Positions 16,953 through 42,696 are shown, numbered from the stretch's first letter. The stretch is 64,000 nucleotides of DNA from Spirochaetia bacterium (GCA_963675665.1 OY776510.1:2048001-2112000), one strand, 5' to 3'. Made by a program: numbers and translations. Notes: generated by a model from the sequence alone, not told the origin.

Positions 16953-18559
16953 ATTATGCCGTGCTTGTACTTACAGGAACATACCGTGAAACAGAAATTC
17001 AGACAAGAGGATTAACTTCAGCGTCTGTCGGCCGGAGATTCAGATTTGATGTTTTCTATCTGAAGGTAGAATCGTTAATAAACAGAAAAAACGTACGAAA
17101 AATACTCATCGACTGCCGGAATGACTTTTCGACCGGAATATTCGCCGGGCTTGAAGAGATTCGAGAACGAATTGAAGCATTGAAGACTGCCGGGAAAGAA
17201 GTATTTTTTTATTCTGATTCTTATTCCGGGCCGCAGCTCTATCTCGCTTCAGCGTGTTCTTACCGGCTTCTGCATCCAATGGGGACGTTGAGATTTTTCG
17301 GTTTGTCTCAATCTTTTACTTTTATGAAAGGACTGATGCGAAAATTGGGTATTGATACTGAAATTATTCGCCGCGGACGTTATAAAAGTGCAGGTGACAG
17401 TTTCGGAAAAGACAAACTTGAAGATCCCAATCGCGAACAATATGAACATTTCCTTTCTACCGTAATGGAAACGATCAGCAGCGGAATAAAATCGGGGTTT
17501 GAAAAGAACGATGATGATTTGGCCGAGCTTCTTGACGGAAGGGTTCTTTCGGCGGAAGAGGCTGCTGATGCAAGCTGGATAGACGAGATTGTAAATATAG
17601 GCAGTTTCAGGGAACGCTGGAAATCCGAAGGCGACAAGGAGATTAAATTCAGGAAGACTCCGGTAAGGTCCGGAAAACGCTTTGTGTTTGGAACAGGAGA
17701 AGTTGCTGTCCTTGTTTTTGAAGGAGCTGTAATTGACGGTCATTCACGTCGCGACCCTGTTCTTGGGCAGGCAATAGGTTCTGATTCCTTTATTCCCCAG
17801 ATTATCAAGCTGAAAGAAGATAAAAAAGTAAAAGCAGTTGTTTTTCGAATAAACTCCGGTGGAGGTTCAGCATTTGCTTCGGAAAATATAACCAGCGAAC
17901 TGCGCCTTCTTGCAGAGAAGAAACCCCTGATTGTTTCAATGTCGGAAGTAGCCGGTTCGGGCGGATACTGGATGTCCTGCTGCGGCCGGAAAACATATGC
18001 TCTGCCGACAACGCTTACCGGCTCTATCGGCGTGATAAGCATCTATCCGTCGTGGCCCCGCCTGCTGGAAAGGCTGGGCATTAACCATGAAACTTTGAGA
18101 AACGGTGAACATGCCGATGCAGGATCGCCGCTTCGCGGGCTGTCTGTTAAAGAAAAAAGTATCGTCGATTCGGAAATTGACAATATGTATAAGGGTTTTA
18201 TTAACATGGTTGCCGAATTCAGGCAACTCCCGGTTGATGCCGTTGACTCAATTGCACAGGGAAGAATCTGGCCGGGCGTAACGGCAACCCGGCATAAACT
18301 TGTTGACGAGTCCGGGGGGCTGACCGATTCAATCAGAATCGCTGCTTCGGAGGCAGGTGTAAAAAACCCGGTTTTAAAATTTTATCCACAGGTAAAACAC
18401 AGCCTGGTAGAACGGTTGATAATGAATGTATCAAAGGAAGATGAGGAGACGATTGAGGCAGCATCTTTGATAAAATCGCTTTCGAAATTAATCGGAAAAT
18501 CTACTGTTAAAACAGGTCCTGTAGCGTTAATGGAAGAGGAATTATTCAGATGGATTTAG
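16949..18559 (+). CDS. sppA: Signal peptide peptidase SppA (S49, two-domain type)
   Basis: GRYKSAG (Lys), RINSGGGSA, AGSGGYW (Ser), TGSIGV, AQGRIW. Confidence 0.88.
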   Translation: MNYAVLVLTGTYRETEIQTRGLTSASVGRRFRFDVFYLKVESLINRKNVRKILIDCRNDFSTGIFAGLEEIRERIEALKTAGKEVFFYSDSYSGPQLYLASACSYRLLHPMGTLRFFGLSQSFTFMKGLMRKLGIDTEIIRRGRYKSAGDSFGKDKLEDPNREQYEHFLSTVMETISSGIKSGFEKNDDDLAELLDGRVLSAEEAADASWIDEIVNIGSFRERWKSEGDKEIKFRKTPVRSGKRFVFGTGEVAVLVFEGAVIDGHSRRDPVLGQAIGSDSFIPQIIKLKEDKKVKAVVFRINSGGGSAFASENITSELRLLAEKKPLIVSMSEVAGSGGYWMSCCGRKTYALPTTLTGSIGVISIYPSWPRLLERLGINHETLRNGEHADAGSPLRGLSVKEKSIVDSEIDNMYKGFINMVAEFRQLPVDAVDSIAQGRIWPGVTATRHKLVDESGGLTDSIRIAASEAGVKNPVLKFYPQVKHSLVERLIMNVSKEDEETIEAASLIKSLSKLIGKSTVKTGPVALMEEELFRWI

Positions 18560-19854
18560 ATGAGTTTTTTGTAAAAGCACTTTCAGCTGCAGAACATTAC
18601 TCAATATCAACCGGAATCCAGTGCTATGTAATTGATACTGAAGGCAAACGGATAGGTCCTGATGATTTTGAAGAATACGGTAATAAATTCTGTGTTGAGC
18701 TTGAAAAGATTTTTCCCTGTGGTGAGCTGAACTGTAATCAGGTACATCGGTACGGCAGCTACCAGGCAGAGCGGTTCGGTGGAAAGTATATGTTTTTCTG
18801 TCCGATGTCCCTGCTGCACTGGACCTCTCCGCTATACATGAAAGGCCGTCTGGTCGGATCCATCATTTGCGGACCCGCTCTTATAATAGATTCTGAAGAT
18901 TTTATACGCAATGATTTAATTTCCGGTAAAAACCTGCCTGCATCTGAAGTATTTAAATTAATGAAGCTTGCCTCAGATATACCCTCAATCACCACCGAAA
19001 GATCCCGCAGTCTTTCTGAATTGCTGTATCTTGCCGCCGCGGGACTGTCAGAGCTGGATAATCTTGAATATCAGCTTCACCAGGAGAATACAGAGCAGCA
19101 GAAAGAGATTTCGGAATATATTCAGTATATCAAGATGATGGAGACCTCCGAAGCGGAATTCTCACGTTACCCGTTCGAGAAAGAAACGGATCTTATTGAC
19201 TATATCGAAAACGGAGAATCCAGGCGCGCCCGTGCTGTGCTGAATGAGATTCTCGGTAATGTATTCTTTTCTTCAGGCGGCGATATAAATGTTATCCGTG
19301 CGAGGGTTCTGGAGCTTGTAGTTCTGCTTTCCAGGGCTGCGGTCAGGGGCGGGGCTGATGCCGAGCAGATTTTCGGAATGAATTATCAGTATATTAATCT
19401 TATAAATTCCTTCACCAGTGTTGATTTAATAGCGTCATGGCTGTCCCGGGTTATTATCAAGTTTTCTGAACTTGTTTTTGATATGAGAGATATCAAGCAT
19501 GCCGACGCTATTCAGGGAGCCATGCAGTATGTGAGGGAAAATTTTCAGAAAAAGATTTCTCTTGATGACGCTGCTGCTCATGTAAACCTTTCTCCGTCCT
19601 ATTTGAGCAAACTTTTTAAAAAAGAACTGGACCAGAATTTTAATAATTATCTTAACCTTGTCAGGGTTGAGAAGAGCAAGAATTATCTTGTAAATACCGA
19701 GGTTCCGCTTATCGATATCGCCGGAATGTGCGGGTTTGAAGATCAGAGCTACTTTTCCAAGGTTTTTAAGAAATTTACCGGCAGTTCTCCCGGAAAATTC
19801 CGTGAAAACAGGGGGCGAAAACCAATGGACAATCAGGAAATTCACAGCTTGTAA
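18550..19854 (+). CDS. PocR ligand-binding domain / AraC family transcriptional regulator
   Basis: N-terminal Cys-containing PocR-type domain (YMFFCPMSL...GSIICGP); C-terminal AraC HTH LSPSYLSKLFK...GFEDQSYFSKVFKKFTG. Confidence 0.88.
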   Translation: MDLDEFFVKALSAAEHYSISTGIQCYVIDTEGKRIGPDDFEEYGNKFCVELEKIFPCGELNCNQVHRYGSYQAERFGGKYMFFCPMSLLHWTSPLYMKGRLVGSIICGPALIIDSEDFIRNDLISGKNLPASEVFKLMKLASDIPSITTERSRSLSELLYLAAAGLSELDNLEYQLHQENTEQQKEISEYIQYIKMMETSEAEFSRYPFEKETDLIDYIENGESRRARAVLNEILGNVFFSSGGDINVIRARVLELVVLLSRAAVRGGADAEQIFGMNYQYINLINSFTSVDLIASWLSRVIIKFSELVFDMRDIKHADAIQGAMQYVRENFQKKISLDDAAAHVNLSPSYLSKLFKKELDQNFNNYLNLVRVEKSKNYLVNTEVPLIDIAGMCGFEDQSYFSKVFKKFTGSSPGKFRENRGRKPMDNQEIHSL

Positions 19855-19945
19855 AAGCCATTTAAGCCGGGAATTTGCAAAAGTTGACAAAATAATTCAA
19901 TACGGCACCATTTTTTCAAGAGATAATCATAGTACAAAATTAAAA

Positions 19946-20082
19946 CAGCATAATTAAGAGGGAAGCGGAGTGAAAATCTCCCACGAGCGCGTCACTGTAA
20001 AGGGTAAGTTAAAGCTGTCCAAAGTCAGGTCACTCTTATTTTGCTGAATGTCATACTCGAACTCGCGAACAGGGAGAGTTGA
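19946..20082 (+). ncRNA. Cobalamin riboswitch (short, class-II-like)
   Basis: AGAGGGAA, T-loop P4 GGAG-UGAAAAU-CUCC, CACGAGCGCGUCACUGUAA, B12-box-like AAGUCAGG, closing stem cagca..aagag/ctctt..tgctg, P13 aactc/gagtt whose GCG loop can kiss L5 CGC. Confidence 0.85.
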
Positions 20083-20098
20083 AGGAGAGATGGAACGT

Positions 20099-20734
20099 AT
20101 GGCAGATTTTGAAAAAATTTCCGAATTAATGCAAAAAGGCAAGGCCGATGATGTAAAACAGCTCTGTGCCGAGGCGCTGGAAGAGGGTGTAGCTCCGAAA
20201 GAAGTACTTGAAAAGGGATTGCTTTCGGCAATGAACATTGTAGGTGAAAAATTCAAGAATAATGAAGTATTTGTCCCTGAAGTTCTGATTGCCGCACGCG
20301 CAATGAATTTCGGCCTTGAGGTTTTAAAGCCGGCCATGGTAGACGGTGATATAGAAGAAATCGGCAAGGTGGTTATTGGAACGGTAAAGGGTGATCTGCA
20401 TGACATAGGTAAAAACCTTGTTAAGATCATGCTTGAAGGCAAAGGCCTTACAGTAATTGATCTTGGAGCTGATGTTTCTGCCGAGAAGTTTATTGAAACG
20501 GCTACCAATGAAAATGCTGATATTATTGCATGTTCTGCGCTGCTTACAACAACCATGACCCAGATGGAATCAATTGTTAAAGCTGCCGGCGATGCGGGAA
20601 TAAGGGATAAGGTAACAATCATGGTAGGCGGAGCCCCTGTTACACAGAAGTTCTGTGAAAGTATCGGTGCTGATATATATGCAGCTGATGCTGCAACAGC
20701 TTCTGAAAAAGCACTTGAAGTTTGTACAAAATAG
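20099..20734 (+). CDS. Corrinoid protein (MtaC/MtbC-like B12-binding protein)
   Basis: Cap domain VGEKFKNNEVFVPEVL, GDLHDIGKN (DxHxxG), SALLTTT, VGGAP. Start could instead be 20090. Confidence 0.95.
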   Translation: MADFEKISELMQKGKADDVKQLCAEALEEGVAPKEVLEKGLLSAMNIVGEKFKNNEVFVPEVLIAARAMNFGLEVLKPAMVDGDIEEIGKVVIGTVKGDLHDIGKNLVKIMLEGKGLTVIDLGADVSAEKFIETATNENADIIACSALLTTTMTQMESIVKAAGDAGIRDKVTIMVGGAPVTQKFCESIGADIYAADAATASEKALEVCTK

Positions 20735-20760
20735 TACAAAATAGTCGGATTCAGACAGAT

Positions 20761-20792
20761 GCCGCCCAGTTTACGGGCGGTTTTTTGTTTTT
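20761..20792 (+). terminator. Rho-independent terminator
   Basis: gccgccc-agtttac-gggcggt followed by a T-run. Confidence 0.75.
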
Positions 20793-21014
20793 CAGGCATG
20801 TGGAGAGCGGCTATAAAATGCAAAAATTAGTTAATAAATACAATATATATCATTTTTTGAGGCATAAACTATAGGTTAATTGGAGTTTGCTTATTACATT
20901 ATCAGTCAATAAGTAAACATCCATTACATCCGGGGTAGTCTTCAAAACTAAAGTTTTATAAAACTGCAGTTTTTAGAAGTACCCTATAATTATTCTTTAA
21001 GATTGGAGAGTATT

Positions 21015-22364
21015 ATGACAGGTAGAGAAAAGGTACTTGCCGTACTGAATAAAGAAAAAACCGATTCCATCCCCTGGCTTCCGTTTGCCGGAGTGCATGC
21101 AGGAAAGTTGAAAGGATATACCGCCAGAGAGGTTTCTACCGAAGCGGATAAACTGATTGAATCGCTTCGTGAAGTAAATAAATTATATAAACCGGATGGT
21201 CAGCCGGTTATGTTCGACCTTCAGATAGAGGCCGAGATCCTCGGATGCGATCTCGTCTGGTCTGATGATGCCCCTCCTACGGTTGCAAGTCATCCGCTGT
21301 CCGAGACAACCGATATTCCCGAAAGACTTCCCGGCAAAGATGACGGACGTATTCCCCTGGCTTTGAAAGCAATGACGGCGATGAAAGAGGAATTCGGCGG
21401 TACAACAGCACTGTATGGATTGATTACAGGGCCTTTTACGTTGGCATCGCATCTTCGCGGAACCAACATTTTTATGGATATGATTATGAATCCTTCTTAT
21501 GTTGCCGAATTGCTTGAATATTGTGTAAAGGTAGCTAAAGAAGTAACTACTTTTTATATTGAAACAGGCATGGATGTAATTGCAGTAGTAGATCCTCTTA
21601 TTTCGCAGATTTCACCGGATCATTTTGCAGAGTTCATGGATAAACCTTTTACCGAGGTTTTTAACCATATCAGAGCAGGCGGAGCCAAATCGTCATTCTT
21701 TGTATGCGGTAACGCCACAGCCAATATTGAACCGATGTGTAAAACAAAGCCTGACAGTATATCAGTCGATGAGAATGTTAATCTTGCTGCAGCTAAAAAG
21801 GTGACCGATGCTTACAACATTGTGATAGGCGGTAATATTCCGCTGACATCCGTGATGCTGTTCGGAACCCAGCAGGATAATATGAAAAATACTGTCGATC
21901 TGATCGACAGCGTAGATAATACCGATCTTTTGATAATAGCTCCGGGTTGCGATATGCCTTATGATATCCCGGTTGAGAATACTATCGGGGTTCAGCAGGC
22001 CGTTCATCAGACCGGGCAGATCCGGGAGATGGTGAAAAATTACGAGGGCACTGAAATAGTATTTGAAGGAGAACTTCCTGATTATGCCAATCTGGAAAAA
22101 CCTCTTATCGAGGTGTTTACGCTTGATTCGATAACATGTGCCGCATGTACATATATGAAGGCCTCTGCTGTAGACATTAAGGAGCATTTCGGAGACAAGG
22201 TTGATATGGTTGAATATAAATATACCGAACCTCAGAACATTGCAAGATGCAAGGTGATGGAGGTTAAACAGTTGCCGAGTATTTATATAAACGGCGAACT
22301 CAAGTATTCTTCCATTATTCCGAACCGAAGCGAATTTATCGCCGAGGTTGAGAAATGTCTGTAG
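21015..22364 (+). CDS. MtaA/CmuA-like (uroporphyrinogen decarboxylase family) methyltransferase fused to a C-terminal thioredoxin-like domain
   Basis: FDLQIEAEILG, GPFTLASHLRG, GGNIP, IIAPGCD; C-terminal VFTLDSITCAAC...PSIYING. Confidence 0.88.
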   Translation: MTGREKVLAVLNKEKTDSIPWLPFAGVHAGKLKGYTAREVSTEADKLIESLREVNKLYKPDGQPVMFDLQIEAEILGCDLVWSDDAPPTVASHPLSETTDIPERLPGKDDGRIPLALKAMTAMKEEFGGTTALYGLITGPFTLASHLRGTNIFMDMIMNPSYVAELLEYCVKVAKEVTTFYIETGMDVIAVVDPLISQISPDHFAEFMDKPFTEVFNHIRAGGAKSSFFVCGNATANIEPMCKTKPDSISVDENVNLAAAKKVTDAYNIVIGGNIPLTSVMLFGTQQDNMKNTVDLIDSVDNTDLLIIAPGCDMPYDIPVENTIGVQQAVHQTGQIREMVKNYEGTEIVFEGELPDYANLEKPLIEVFTLDSITCAACTYMKASAVDIKEHFGDKVDMVEYKYTEPQNIARCKVMEVKQLPSIYINGELKYSSIIPNRSEFIAEVEKCL

Positions 22365-23329
22365 AAAAAATGTCCGGAGAGCAAATGTCTTTCGGACATA
22401 AAATTCCGCTTGTTCTTGTATCGGGTTTTTTGGGTTCGGGCAAGACAACCTTTCTGAATAATCTTTTCAATCTTTTCCCGGACAAGAAGTTCGGGATTAT
22501 CATAAATGATTTCGGTGCAATAGGTGTTGACGCGGCAGTAATAAAATCTCCAAAAGGCGCAATAATAGAAGAATTGAATAACGGACAGATCTTCTGTTCC
22601 TGCCTTGCCGGTTCGTTTATCAAGTCTGTTTCAGCGTATGCAGATCTGGATATTGACTATCTGCTGGTAGAAACCTCGGGACTGGCAAAACCTTCGCCGA
22701 TGCTTGAAATAATCGAAGCAATAAAAAAAATTAATGGAAACAGGTTCAGCTATTTCGGTATGGTAAGCCTTGTTGATTGCGGGACATACCTGGCTTTGTC
22801 GAATGTTCTGAAAGCGGTTGATGAGCAGATTCATTACAGCGATCTTGTAGTAATGAATAAAACAGATACTGTCGATACGGGAACCCTCAAAAAAGTTGAA
22901 ATGAAGATCCTTTCAGTGAATCCCGATGCTGATATTATCAGGACCGAGTACGGAAGACTTCAGGAAGAAGATTTTTTAAAGCTGAATGAGAAAAAGAATA
23001 TAACAGCGCCCGACGGGCGCTTTGCCGGATGGGGCGGGCAGGGAAGGCCTGTTCCGATATTGCTGCAGAGCAAATCTCCGGTCAGCCTTTCAGCCCTGCA
23101 GGCTTTTGTTGATGATCCCGGCGGAGATTTTTACAGGATGAAAGGACGGCTGAGTACCGATTCCGGAATGGTTTATGTAGACTGTACTACCGGGCAAAAA
23201 GAAATGAGAAAAGATGAATCAAGCGCGGAAAACAGGTCGGAGGGGCTTGTTATTATCCTTCCGGCAGATGAGAATATTGTCAGTGAGGTGAAACAGCGGG
23301 CGTCTGTAATCTTTGGCCCGTTGGAATAA
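22355..23329 (+). CDS. CobW/COG0523 family GTPase (metallochaperone)
   Basis: SGFLGSGKTT, NDFG, GQIFCSC, VETSGLA, NKTD, YRMKG. Confidence 0.9.
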   Translation: MSVEKMSGEQMSFGHKIPLVLVSGFLGSGKTTFLNNLFNLFPDKKFGIIINDFGAIGVDAAVIKSPKGAIIEELNNGQIFCSCLAGSFIKSVSAYADLDIDYLLVETSGLAKPSPMLEIIEAIKKINGNRFSYFGMVSLVDCGTYLALSNVLKAVDEQIHYSDLVVMNKTDTVDTGTLKKVEMKILSVNPDADIIRTEYGRLQEEDFLKLNEKKNITAPDGRFAGWGGQGRPVPILLQSKSPVSLSALQAFVDDPGGDFYRMKGRLSTDSGMVYVDCTTGQKEMRKDESSAENRSEGLVIILPADENIVSEVKQRASVIFGPLE

Positions 23330-23331
23330 AA

Positions 23332-25188
23332 ATGATAATTACTATAAATTCAGGCAGTAAAACTGTTAAAAGCAAAATAGGAATGGGCGAATCACTTCTC
23401 GATGCAATAAACAGGGCCGGTATTGAAGGTTTTGACGCTCCCTGCGGCGGAAAAGGCACATGCGGTAAATGCCGGGTGTCGGTAAGTGCCGATGAGCTGA
23501 AAAATCTCCCGGAGGCAGACAGCACTGAATTAAAGTTGCTGTCTGTTAATGAACTGAACGAAGGCACAAGGCTTGCCTGCAGGGTTTTTCCTTCTACGGA
23601 TGTCTGTATAGCTGTTTCGGCAGCCGGCAGAGAAGCGGTAATTCAGTCTGCCTTTGAAGGTGAGATTGCCGCTGAAATAGCAGCTGACAAACCTGTAGTT
23701 GTCAAACGCTTTATTTCCCTGCCTGAGCCGTCGATAGATGATCAGCGATCTGATCTGAAAAGGCTCTCCGATGAATTATCCCCCGTCACTGTTGGTTTGC
23801 CGATAGACGAACTGCGCCGGCTTCCTTCAGTTCTGAGGAAAAACGGGTACCGGATTACGGTAACTGAAATTCTTGGAAATGCTGTATCGTTTGAAGGCGG
23901 TAATACAACCGAAGAGTCCTGGGCTGTTTCAGTTGATATCGGTACAACGACAGTTGTTGCTTACCTGGTACGACTTGCAGGTGCCGGACGGGGAAAGATT
24001 ATTGATCTTGTCTCGTCTCTGAACAGTCAGAAGGGATACGGCGGGGATGTAATCTCAAGAATCGAGTTTTGCATGCAGAATGAAAAAAATCTTGATGAAT
24101 TGCAGCGGCGTATTACGGGGCAGGTTGCCGAAATGGTCAGAAAACTGTCCGTAAAAAATAATATAAATTTAAAAGACATTAACCTGGTCACTGTCGCCGG
24201 AAACACAACCATGACCCATCTTTTTACCGGGCTGGATCCGTCCGGAATAGCAGCCGCTCCGTTTATCCCGGTTGATACGGGCCTCCTTATTACCGGAGCT
24301 GATGAATTCGGGCTTGGCTTGCCGAACAGCTGCCGTTGTGCTGTTCTTCCGGGAATTGCTTCTTATGTCGGTTCAGACATCACCTCGGGGATTGCCGCTA
24401 CCGGCATGAACAAATCGGATGAACTTTCGCTTTTAATTGATATAGGCACTAACGGAGAGATTGTCCTGGGGGATAAATTCGGGATGACGGCATGTTCAAC
24501 AGCTGCAGGGCCGGCTCTTGAGGGCGCTAACATCAGCTGCGGTATGGGCGGTGTTCCGGGAGCTATAAACAGTCTTTCTGCAACGGAGCAGGGTGATCAG
24601 GAAGTGTTCAGTTTCAGCGTCATCGGTGATGTGTCGCCTTCGGGCATATGCGGTTCGGGTATTGTTGATGCTGTAGCATTGTTTGTGAAAGCCGGTGTTA
24701 TTGATGAAACTGGCCGGATTCTTAAAGATAGTGAACTGCATGATGCAGGGGTGAGTCAGAGCTGGATTAACTGTATTACGGAAAAGGATGACAGCGTTGC
24801 CTTGAAGATCTCTGAAAATATTTTTCTTACCCAGAAGGATATCCGTGAAATTCAGATGGCCAAAGCTGCAATTTCAGCCGGCGTAAAAACTCTTCTCGCC
24901 GAAACCGGAAAGACTGCGGCTGATGTCGGCAAACTTTATATCGCCGGGGGGTTCGGCGCTGCTATGAACAGGAATTCTGCAGCGGTAATAGGGCTGTTTC
25001 CCCCGGAACTTGAAAGTTCAGTCGTAATTTCAGGAAATACAGCAGGTAAGGGGGCAGTACTGGCAGCCCTGTCGGCTGAGGTTATGAATGATATGAAAGA
25101 TATTGCTGAACAGGTCAAGTATATTGAACTTTCAACATCGGTTCTGTTTCAGCAGGAATATATGACGGAGATGTATTTTCATTCGTGA
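23332..25188 (+). CDS. RACo/ASKHA reductive activator of corrinoid proteins with N-terminal 2Fe-2S domain
   Basis: CGGKGTCGKC...RLAC, VDIGTTT, DIGTNGE, AAGPALEG, GICGSG, TQKDIREIQMAKAA, AGGFG. Confidence 0.92.
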   Translation: MIITINSGSKTVKSKIGMGESLLDAINRAGIEGFDAPCGGKGTCGKCRVSVSADELKNLPEADSTELKLLSVNELNEGTRLACRVFPSTDVCIAVSAAGREAVIQSAFEGEIAAEIAADKPVVVKRFISLPEPSIDDQRSDLKRLSDELSPVTVGLPIDELRRLPSVLRKNGYRITVTEILGNAVSFEGGNTTEESWAVSVDIGTTTVVAYLVRLAGAGRGKIIDLVSSLNSQKGYGGDVISRIEFCMQNEKNLDELQRRITGQVAEMVRKLSVKNNINLKDINLVTVAGNTTMTHLFTGLDPSGIAAAPFIPVDTGLLITGADEFGLGLPNSCRCAVLPGIASYVGSDITSGIAATGMNKSDELSLLIDIGTNGEIVLGDKFGMTACSTAAGPALEGANISCGMGGVPGAINSLSATEQGDQEVFSFSVIGDVSPSGICGSGIVDAVALFVKAGVIDETGRILKDSELHDAGVSQSWINCITEKDDSVALKISENIFLTQKDIREIQMAKAAISAGVKTLLAETGKTAADVGKLYIAGGFGAAMNRNSAAVIGLFPPELESSVVISGNTAGKGAVLAALSAEVMNDMKDIAEQVKYIELSTSVLFQQEYMTEMYFHS

Positions 25189-42001: not shown

Positions 42002-42073
42002 AGCGGGAGACGGGAATTGAACCCGCGACATCCACCTTGGCAAGGTGGAGCTCTACCGCTGAGCTACTCCCGC
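42002..42073 (-). tRNA. tRNA-Gly(GCC)
   Basis: gcgggagtagctcagcggtagagc...cttgccaagg...ggttcaattccc; CCA not encoded. Confidence 0.95.
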
Positions 42074-42119
42074 TTGTTGTTTTCCGGCGCCCAAAAAGGC
42101 GCATATCCCACAAGAGATA

Positions 42120-42201
42120 TGCGAGAGAAGGGACTTGAACCCTTACGCCATAAGGCACCAGATCCTAAGTCTGGCGTGTCTGCCAATTTCACCACTCTCG
42201 C
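42120..42201 (-). tRNA. tRNA-Leu(TAG)
   Basis: gcgagagtggtgaaattggcagac...cttagga, long variable arm. Confidence 0.95.
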
Positions 42202-42331
42202 AGTGTACCTGCGGAGAGTTTAACTTTCAGAAAGAAAATTAATCTCCCTGAAAGATAGCCACTTTCTTTCGAAGAGTGTCCGCATTATATACGCTTTTTC
42301 GTTTCATGGTCAATATATAACGAAAAAGTTT

Positions 42332-42404
42332 TGAGCCGTGTAGGGATCGAACCTACGACCCGCAGATTAAGAGTCTGCTGCTCTCCCAGCTGAGCTAACG
42401 GCCC
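42332..42404 (-). tRNA. tRNA-Lys(CTT)
   Basis: gggccgttagctcagctgggagagc, anticodon loop ctcttaa. Confidence 0.95.
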
Positions 42405-42518
42405 ATAGTTATTCCAAAAAACAAAGGCTTCTGATAAAGCCTCTAAACAGCCCCCGAAAGGAGACTATCTAATGAAAGAACAAAGTTCTTTCAAATTAAA
42501 AATCTGCAAGATTTTTAA

Positions 42519-42592
<74 letters not shown>

Positions 42593-42622
42593 ACAGCTCC
42601 TGCCATACGTCAGGCGCCATAG

Positions 42623-42696
42623 GGTGGATAACGGGACTTGAACCCGCAACACCCAGAACCACAATCTGGTGCTCTACCGATTGAACTATATCCACC
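42623..42696 (-). tRNA. tRNA-His(GTG)
   Basis: G-1, loop ttgtggt, C discriminator. Confidence 0.95.

Follow-up and report, generated by a model that had tools for sequence, protein, structure and literature searches.

Which way does a cobalamin riboswitch act when the gene behind it encodes a protein that itself requires cobalamin? The question is raised by a 64,000-nucleotide stretch of a Spirochaetia bacterium genome (GCA_963675665.1 OY776510.1:2048001-2112000), hereafter the window, in whose coordinates all positions are given. An earlier note on this DNA had proposed a rare ON switch, in which ligand binding frees the ribosome binding site (RBS) and the apo-protein is made only when cofactor is available. 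Precedent points the other way: a review divides cobalamin riboswitches into classes I, IIa, and IIb and describes them as switching transport and biosynthesis OFF (PMC11477304); comparative work describes their repression of B12-independent isozymes (PMC545781); and a reporter study of 38 riboswitches finds that every functional one represses and predicts an intrinsic terminator for 37 of the 38 (PMC9600662). The analysis described herein finds that the feature is real and conserved and that its target and platform are unusual; the ON idea of the earlier note may be right, but not by the mechanism given for it.

A cobalamin riboswitch ahead of a corrinoid protein gene

The locus is read from the plus strand throughout. 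A gene for a regulator that joins a PocR sensory domain to an AraC-type HTH (18550..19854; Pfam PocR, HTH_18, and HTH_AraC) is followed by a conserved box, TGCAAAAGTTGACAAAATAATTCAATACGG (19876..19905), which is near-invariant in the window and in the related leaders L008-L010 and is probably a binding site for the PocR-AraC regulator that overlaps the -35 region; a bipartite pattern, TACAA(A/T)...N14-16...A(C/A)A(G/T)A(C/T), can be picked out by eye in more distant leaders. The hexamer GATAAT (19922..19927) is, by its sequence and conserved position, a putative -10 element, left uncalled by a consensus promoter scan, and transcription would start near 19934. The cobalamin riboswitch (19933..20084), matched by RF01482 and with helices backed by covariation, leads into the Shine-Dalgarno (SD) sequence AAGGAGAG (20082..20089), which lies 2 nt past the P13 hairpin and 9 nt ahead of the start codon of a corrinoid (cobalamin-binding) protein gene of the methyltransferase type (20099..20734, 211 aa). 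The start of this gene is placed at ATG 20099 because ATGGCAGATTTT is kept in relatives and ATG 20090 is not. A terminator-like hairpin with a T run follows (20761..20791, the terminator scan calling its site at 20761-20781), and beyond it, by domain and family profile matches, stand genes for an MtaA/CmuA-like URO-D methyltransferase (21003-22364), a COG0523/CobW-type GTPase (22355-23329), and a RACo-type reductive activase (23332-25188). One COG0523 subfamily is tied to corrinoid methyltransferases in a published survey (PMC2770081), and clusters of comparable make-up are treated in another study (PMC10418091). Elsewhere in the window, a Moco riboswitch (RF01055, 50645-50755, plus strand, 65.4 bits against a cut-off of 36) precedes, in an ordinary arrangement, genes to 53332 for an ABC transporter (PBP_like_2 binding protein, permease, and TOBE-domain ATPase), and five tRNA genes are clustered at 42002-42695 on the minus strand (58-71 bits).

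The target of the riboswitch is, as had been claimed, a B12-requiring protein: the gene directly downstream encodes a B12-binding_2 cap and a B12-binding Rossmann domain (Pfam, 4.8e-22 and 3.4e-28, respectively), and its translation contains the DxHxxG-type motif GDLHDIG. Judged by these two domains, the product is an MtaC/MtgC-like methyltransferase corrinoid protein; its nearest families are of the MtgC/MtbC type, yet it scores below their cut-offs (for TIGR02370, 200.7 bits against 215.3). The best solved relatives are 1Y80 and then 7XCN, with a trimethylamine corrinoid protein among them. Genome-wide, one other match to the corrinoid protein was found (E <= 1e-10), within an 820-aa frame, and three further cobalamin-clan riboswitches are present, preceding a cobT-type gene, a gene for a BtuF-like binding protein, and a gene for an Ig-like lipoprotein.

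The earlier description of a complete short aptamer directly before the corrinoid gene holds. The Rfam model RF01482 ('AdoCbl') is covered from position 1 to 149 of 149 at 51.9 bits, a small margin of 1.9 bits over the gathering score of 50. Of the covariance-model checks suggested earlier, this one alone exceeded its threshold: RF00174 reached 26.1 bits at the window riboswitch against a gathering score of 31.5, a deficit for which the short P6 would account in part, and RF01689 (AdoCbl-II, class IIa) gave no match at E <= 0.001 when the whole genome was searched. The RF01482 alignment lays out P1 (19946-50/20042-46), with the same first base, 19946, that had been proposed, followed by P2 (19955-60/20033-38), P4 (19965-70/19978-82), P5 with its loop L5 (19985-93), a short P6 (19995-20028), and the J6/3 box AAGUCAGG (20022-29). 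The alignment, together with reading by eye, places the P13 hairpin at 20055..20079, with its loop L13, CUCGCG..., at 20062-20071. Across six aptamer sequences, the columns CGAGC.CGTCACTGT and AG.CAG are invariant, and these we take to be the J6/3 'B12 box' and the GUCACUG core consensus of cobalamin riboswitches. By these sequence features, the RNA is a member of the cobalamin riboswitch clan (CL00101), and it would be expected to bind a cobalamin.

In the window, L13 (CUCGCG) is complementary to CGCG of L5 (19988-19991). Elsewhere the complementarity takes the form CC(C)/GG(G), and both loops differ together between clades, as judged by eye and with an ambiguous pairing register. This pattern would fit an L5-L13 kissing loop, in which P13 would serve as the regulatory hairpin. 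In most leaders, a further complementarity of 6-7 bases can be picked out by eye between L13 (UUCG-N-GG) and the P4 3' end, J4/5, and P5 5' strand, a pairing that would compete with the folded aptamer (in the window, the sites are 19985-19993 and 20062-20071). The orthologous aptamer is either short, as in the window, or carries a P6 extension of about 45-95 nt (L011, L112, L215, L078, and others); since both forms occur at the orthologous position, no claim is made here about the form of cobalamin sensed, and their coexistence raises the question of whether lineages differ in ligand selectivity.

Covariation and distribution across spirochaetes

A covariance model, R1, was built from six core aptamers of this type. 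In an alignment of 36 matches fitted to that model, 94.2% of cells pair and 12 of the 15 pairs show two-sided changes, values that none of 500 shuffles reached and that slid partners did not approach either; the core helices P2, P4, P5, and P6 are kept by compensatory change. P13, anchored on its loop motif, pairs in all 24 tabulated leaders, its second pair being G-C in 13, A-U in seven, G-U in two, and another combination in two.

Searches with R1 place the riboswitch among spirochaetes. In one-genome-per-species contigs, R1 located a riboswitch upstream on the same strand in seven of the 80 loci with the closest corrinoid proteins, all seven in spirochaete MAGs, and 80 metagenome loci encoding corrinoid proteins 59-67% identical yielded none. 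Within the class to which the window belongs, 78 of 151 sampled genomes have a match at E <= 1e-6. From about 108 listed R1 matches in this search, the best 30 loci and 20 further regions were drawn; 24 of the former are followed immediately by the corrinoid gene, in a ranking that favours corrinoid-linked loci because the model was built from corrinoid-linked sequences, and so are five of the latter. Removal of duplicates left 32 distinct leaders, all from spirochaete genomes. As these sequences are related, the counts across leaders given here and below overstate the support that they lend.

The neighbourhood is kept along with the RNA. Of 28 loci examined, 27 have a PocR-AraC homologue next to the riboswitch: in 26 it lies upstream on the same strand, and in L078 it is divergent; none is seen in the shorter locus L219. 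The URO-D methyltransferase gene of L078 is, like its PocR-AraC gene, divergent from the riboswitch-corrinoid unit, and thus the riboswitch stays with the corrinoid gene and not with the methyltransferase. Terminator-like hairpins of unrelated sequence lie behind the corrinoid gene in all three loci examined (the window, L009, and L201), and the unit under riboswitch control therefore looks like the corrinoid gene alone. In terms of recurring gene order, the PocR-AraC regulator, promoter box, riboswitch, corrinoid gene, and terminator-like hairpin constitute a conserved cassette. The conservation of both the regulator and the upstream box lends weight to the two-layer control that had been suggested, wherein the neighbouring regulator probably activates transcription of the unit and the riboswitch in its 5' leader would act as a second, functional layer upon a single-gene corrinoid carrier unit of a methyltransferase system.

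Expression platform and direction of switching

The leader contains no terminator-like site between 19933 and 20099, as had been noted before; the sole plus-strand site within 19600-21100 is the one behind the gene, at 20761-20781. The output of the riboswitch would be translation initiation and not transcription termination. The leaders share one geometry, in which the aptamer is followed by a short linker, P13, a few bases, the SD, and the AUG. In the window, AAGGAG (20082-20087) does stand just outside P13, 2 nt past the hairpin at 20055-20079, and in none of the leaders read does the SD fall within P13. Between the end of P13 and the AUG, 23 of 26 leaders have 12-27 nt; the exceptions are one leader with 40 nt, where the P13 call is doubtful, and L011 and L112, whose platforms of 51 and 55 nt carry extra hairpins.

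The route to ON switching first suggested for this locus can largely be set aside. It held that, in the apo state, UCUCC of the P4 3' strand (19977-19981) pairs with GGAGA of the SD (20084-20088) and that ligand restores P4 and frees the SD. The 5-nt complementarity does exist, but it is at chance level: one or more perfect 5-mer complements to the SD stretch turned up in 256 of 2000 shuffled leaders (13%). All five UCUCC:GGAGA pairs have a probability of 0.0 when the full leader is folded as an unconstrained ensemble. In a comparison of 26 leaders, duplexes of the P4 3' strand with the cognate RBS came to -6.12 kcal/mol and those with foreign ones to -5.72 kcal/mol, the cognate value being better than its row median in only 15 of the 26. 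The P4 3' strands of all relatives are pyrimidine-rich, with 3-5 nt of SD complementarity always available (mean -6.1 kcal/mol), yet P4 varies (GGAG, GAAG, GAGG, GGGG, and AAGG) while the SD stays AAGGAG-like, without covariation between them. P4 is, moreover, a local hairpin of five pairs and a 7-nt loop, four of the pairs covarying, and it would form before the SD is transcribed. The match is hence regarded as the generic complementarity of a pyrimidine-rich strand to an SD, and the P4 mechanism, which we consider very improbable, is rejected.

A different pairing is predicted to bury the start codon in the window. The J1/13 strand UGUCAUAC (20049..20056), a candidate anti-start strand, is complementary to the start codon region GUAUGGCA (20097-20104) and pairs with it at a probability of 0.8-1.0 in the free ensemble, wherein CUC (20062-64) also pairs with GAG of the SD. 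Left free, the platform of the window folds at -14.4 kcal/mol and keeps the AUG unpaired at about 0.01; when P13 is forced, the platform folds at -9.4 kcal/mol, with the AUG unpaired at 0.52-0.85 and the SD more open too, such that the free fold is about 5 kcal/mol the more stable. Forcing P13 likewise raises RBS accessibility by 0.26-0.35 in L198, L197, L009, and L205. The RNAalifold consensus of five sequences of the window's clade is the anti-start helix, with five pairs invariant, and an ATGTCA block is invariant in these five sequences despite variable flanks and recurs in L230. A one-sided A-to-G change in L205 keeps its anti-start pair as G-U. These models suggest that anti-start pairing competes with P13, which would give an ON switch; the pairing is limited to this clade. 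Against ON switching stands the sequence comparison itself, in which the anti-start helix appears without compensatory double change (two-sided changes in 0 of 11 pairs among the five clade sequences) and not family-wide; in L197/L008, two of its pairs are broken, and P13 could form alongside a 6-bp remnant of the helix.

On the ON reading, the apo leader would pair UGUCAUAC and the 5' half of P13 with GUAUGGCA and part of the SD, thereby burying the start codon. Once cobalamin is bound, L13 would dock on L5 and hold P13 (20055-20079) closed, the neighbours of the anti-start strand would be taken out of play, and the SD and AUG would become free. Synthesis of the apo-protein would then follow free cofactor and, in combination with the regulator, would amount to a 'substrate AND cofactor' gate. 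By our own argument, the biological logic is that a stoichiometric B12 binder made without its cofactor would drain the B12 pool. ON switching through P13 and the kissing loop against an anti-start or anti-SD pairing is put forward tentatively as the preferred reading, one that falls somewhat short of probable; the same reserve applies to the broader proposal of a spirochaete-wide family of natural cis-acting ON cobalamin riboswitches that form one-locus 'substrate AND cofactor' gates with PocR-AraC regulators, for which our confidence is likewise limited.

The chief rival is an ordinary OFF switch, wherein cobalamin-dependent L13-L5 docking would anchor P13 and the bulky aptamer at 2-12 nt from the SD, in the way of 30S binding; in a variant of the same idea, such docking might trigger Rho termination or mRNA decay. 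On either route, high free cobalamin would lower synthesis of the corrinoid protein. By analogy, the literature speaks for repression and against ON switching, as the characterised cobalamin riboswitches in the reviewed literature all repress (PMC11477304, PMC545781), including one upstream of a B12-dependent mutase gene, Veillonella parvula mutA, in a study with B. subtilis reporters (PMC9600662). P13 and L13 keep their canonical architecture, and the short, narrow spacing of P13 from the SD and AUG described above suggests that proximity matters. In most leaders beyond the window's clade, furthermore, no apo-state sequestration of the RBS is predicted. On the other side, the SD is never inside P13 among the leaders read, forcing P13 leaves the SD and AUG of the window more open and not less, and repression would, by our own reasoning, turn scarcity of B12 into more apo-protein, a positive feedback on cofactor depletion.

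Repression is also harder to reconcile with the uptake-type riboswitches of the same genome, whose anti-SD hairpin the corrinoid-type leader lacks. These are, in coordinates of the genome sequence, L006, at about 2282871-2283021, ahead of genes for a BtuF-like binding protein and a FecCD permease, and L007, at about 2372816-2373010, ahead of a gene for a Big_2 lipoprotein. They share with the corrinoid-type leader the aptamer subclass and the P13 with its CUUCG(N)GG loop; unlike that leader, with 16 nt after P13 and no anti-SD hairpin, they have 59 and 66 nt, respectively, and an extra anti-SD:SD hairpin. In the free fold of L006, the anti-SD is held by L13, an arrangement that follows the classic OFF logic of three elements. 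(In two control leaders, L220 and L225, the riboswitch ends 101 and 130 nt before the ORF.) With that extra hairpin absent, the corrinoid type is one regulatory inversion short of the uptake switches, which fits an inverted (ON) logic without proving it. We regard OFF switching as somewhat less likely than ON switching.

Outside the window's clade, the signal thins. When P13 is forced, 14 of 26 leaders show a shift in RBS accessibility below 0.1, and two (L206 and L208) show a fall of at least 0.1; anti-start complementarity beats shuffles at 0.05 in four of 24 (L198, L009, and L205, with L112 in addition). Twelve of 28 leaders contain, upstream of L13, a wobble-tolerant complement to AUGGC, G-Y-Y-R-U, where 5.5 would be expected; this count is inflated by relatedness, as the matches cluster in related sequences. 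The P13 5' strand with L13 prefers its own RBS over foreign ones in 19 of 24 leaders, and L223 and L226 show by eye one U-A to C-G exchange; for the P2/P1 3' strands, J1/13, and the P13 3' strand, duplexes with the RBS did not favour the cognate partner (16, 10, and 10 of 26, respectively). The P13-forcing test gave no clear OFF signal in two uptake-type controls either (0.53 to 0.48 and 0.33 to 0.32). Its power is consequently unproven, and null results from such folding tests weigh little.

Lastly, cobalamin may be bound and the output be another: mRNA stability or processing, read-through into the methyltransferase genes, or a direction of switching that differs by clade. Platforms do differ by clade: some have an anti-start strand, others lack one, and L011 and L112 carry their hairpin-bearing 51-55 nt; short and P6-extended aptamers occupy the orthologous position; and terminator-like hairpins stand behind the gene wherever they were looked for (3/3 loci). 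The constant P13-SD-AUG geometry nevertheless points to one common translational mechanism, and a different output is judged unlikely. Were ON switching through P13 to hold, the locus would offer a natural ON cobalamin riboswitch of simple design, which could serve as a biosensor part and as a model for the inversion of a kissing-loop platform; were OFF switching to hold, it would present a physiological puzzle, in that less B12 carrier would be made when B12 is plentiful.

Comparison with known cobalamin-responsive systems

A literature search that left most subscription journals outside its reach turned up neither a description of a cobalamin riboswitch before a methyltransferase corrinoid protein nor one of a natural cis-acting ON cobalamin riboswitch, and comparison is thus with relatives of other kinds. 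The env8 HyCbl type, on which Johnson et al. worked in 2012, is reportedly a class II riboswitch with an L5-L13 kissing loop and its RBS within P13, wherein ligand represses translation. The riboswitch of the window shares with it a short aptamer free of a large P6 extension, a P13 loop complementary to L5, and a leader without a terminator; in contrast, the SD of the window lies 2 nt beyond P13, the target is a B12-using protein, and RF01689, the class model for the env8 type, has no match in the window's genome.

RF01482, the Rfam model that best matches the riboswitch of the window, is that of the class IIb riboswitches found at the eut loci of Enterococcus and Listeria (EutX/Rli55), whose L13 consensus, UUCGAGG, is similar. 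There too, B12 is linked to the expression of a B12-dependent pathway (PMC8079631, PMC11477304). The eut riboswitch, however, terminates a decoy ncRNA, being OFF at the RNA level and activating indirectly, whereas that of the window lies in cis on the mRNA, without a terminator. In Listeria, AspocR, a B12 riboswitch-terminated RNA against pocR, and Rli55 couple B12 indirectly to B12-dependent pathways, and a PocR-type regulator and a B12 riboswitch together integrate substrate and cofactor, as would be the case here (PMC8079631). The two circuits differ in layout, in that the Listeria riboswitch controls an antisense RNA against pocR, whereas the riboswitch of the window is found in the leader of the target itself, with the PocR-AraC gene upstream on the same strand. 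V. parvula mutA, in turn, resembles the window's locus in placing a cobalamin riboswitch before a gene whose product depends on B12, but its switch represses (PMC9600662), and the leader in the window is without a terminator. Among these systems, according to the sources cited, the known couplings of B12 to its use are indirect, via decoy or antisense RNAs, whereas the sensor of the window sits on the mRNA of the stoichiometric B12-binding protein itself.
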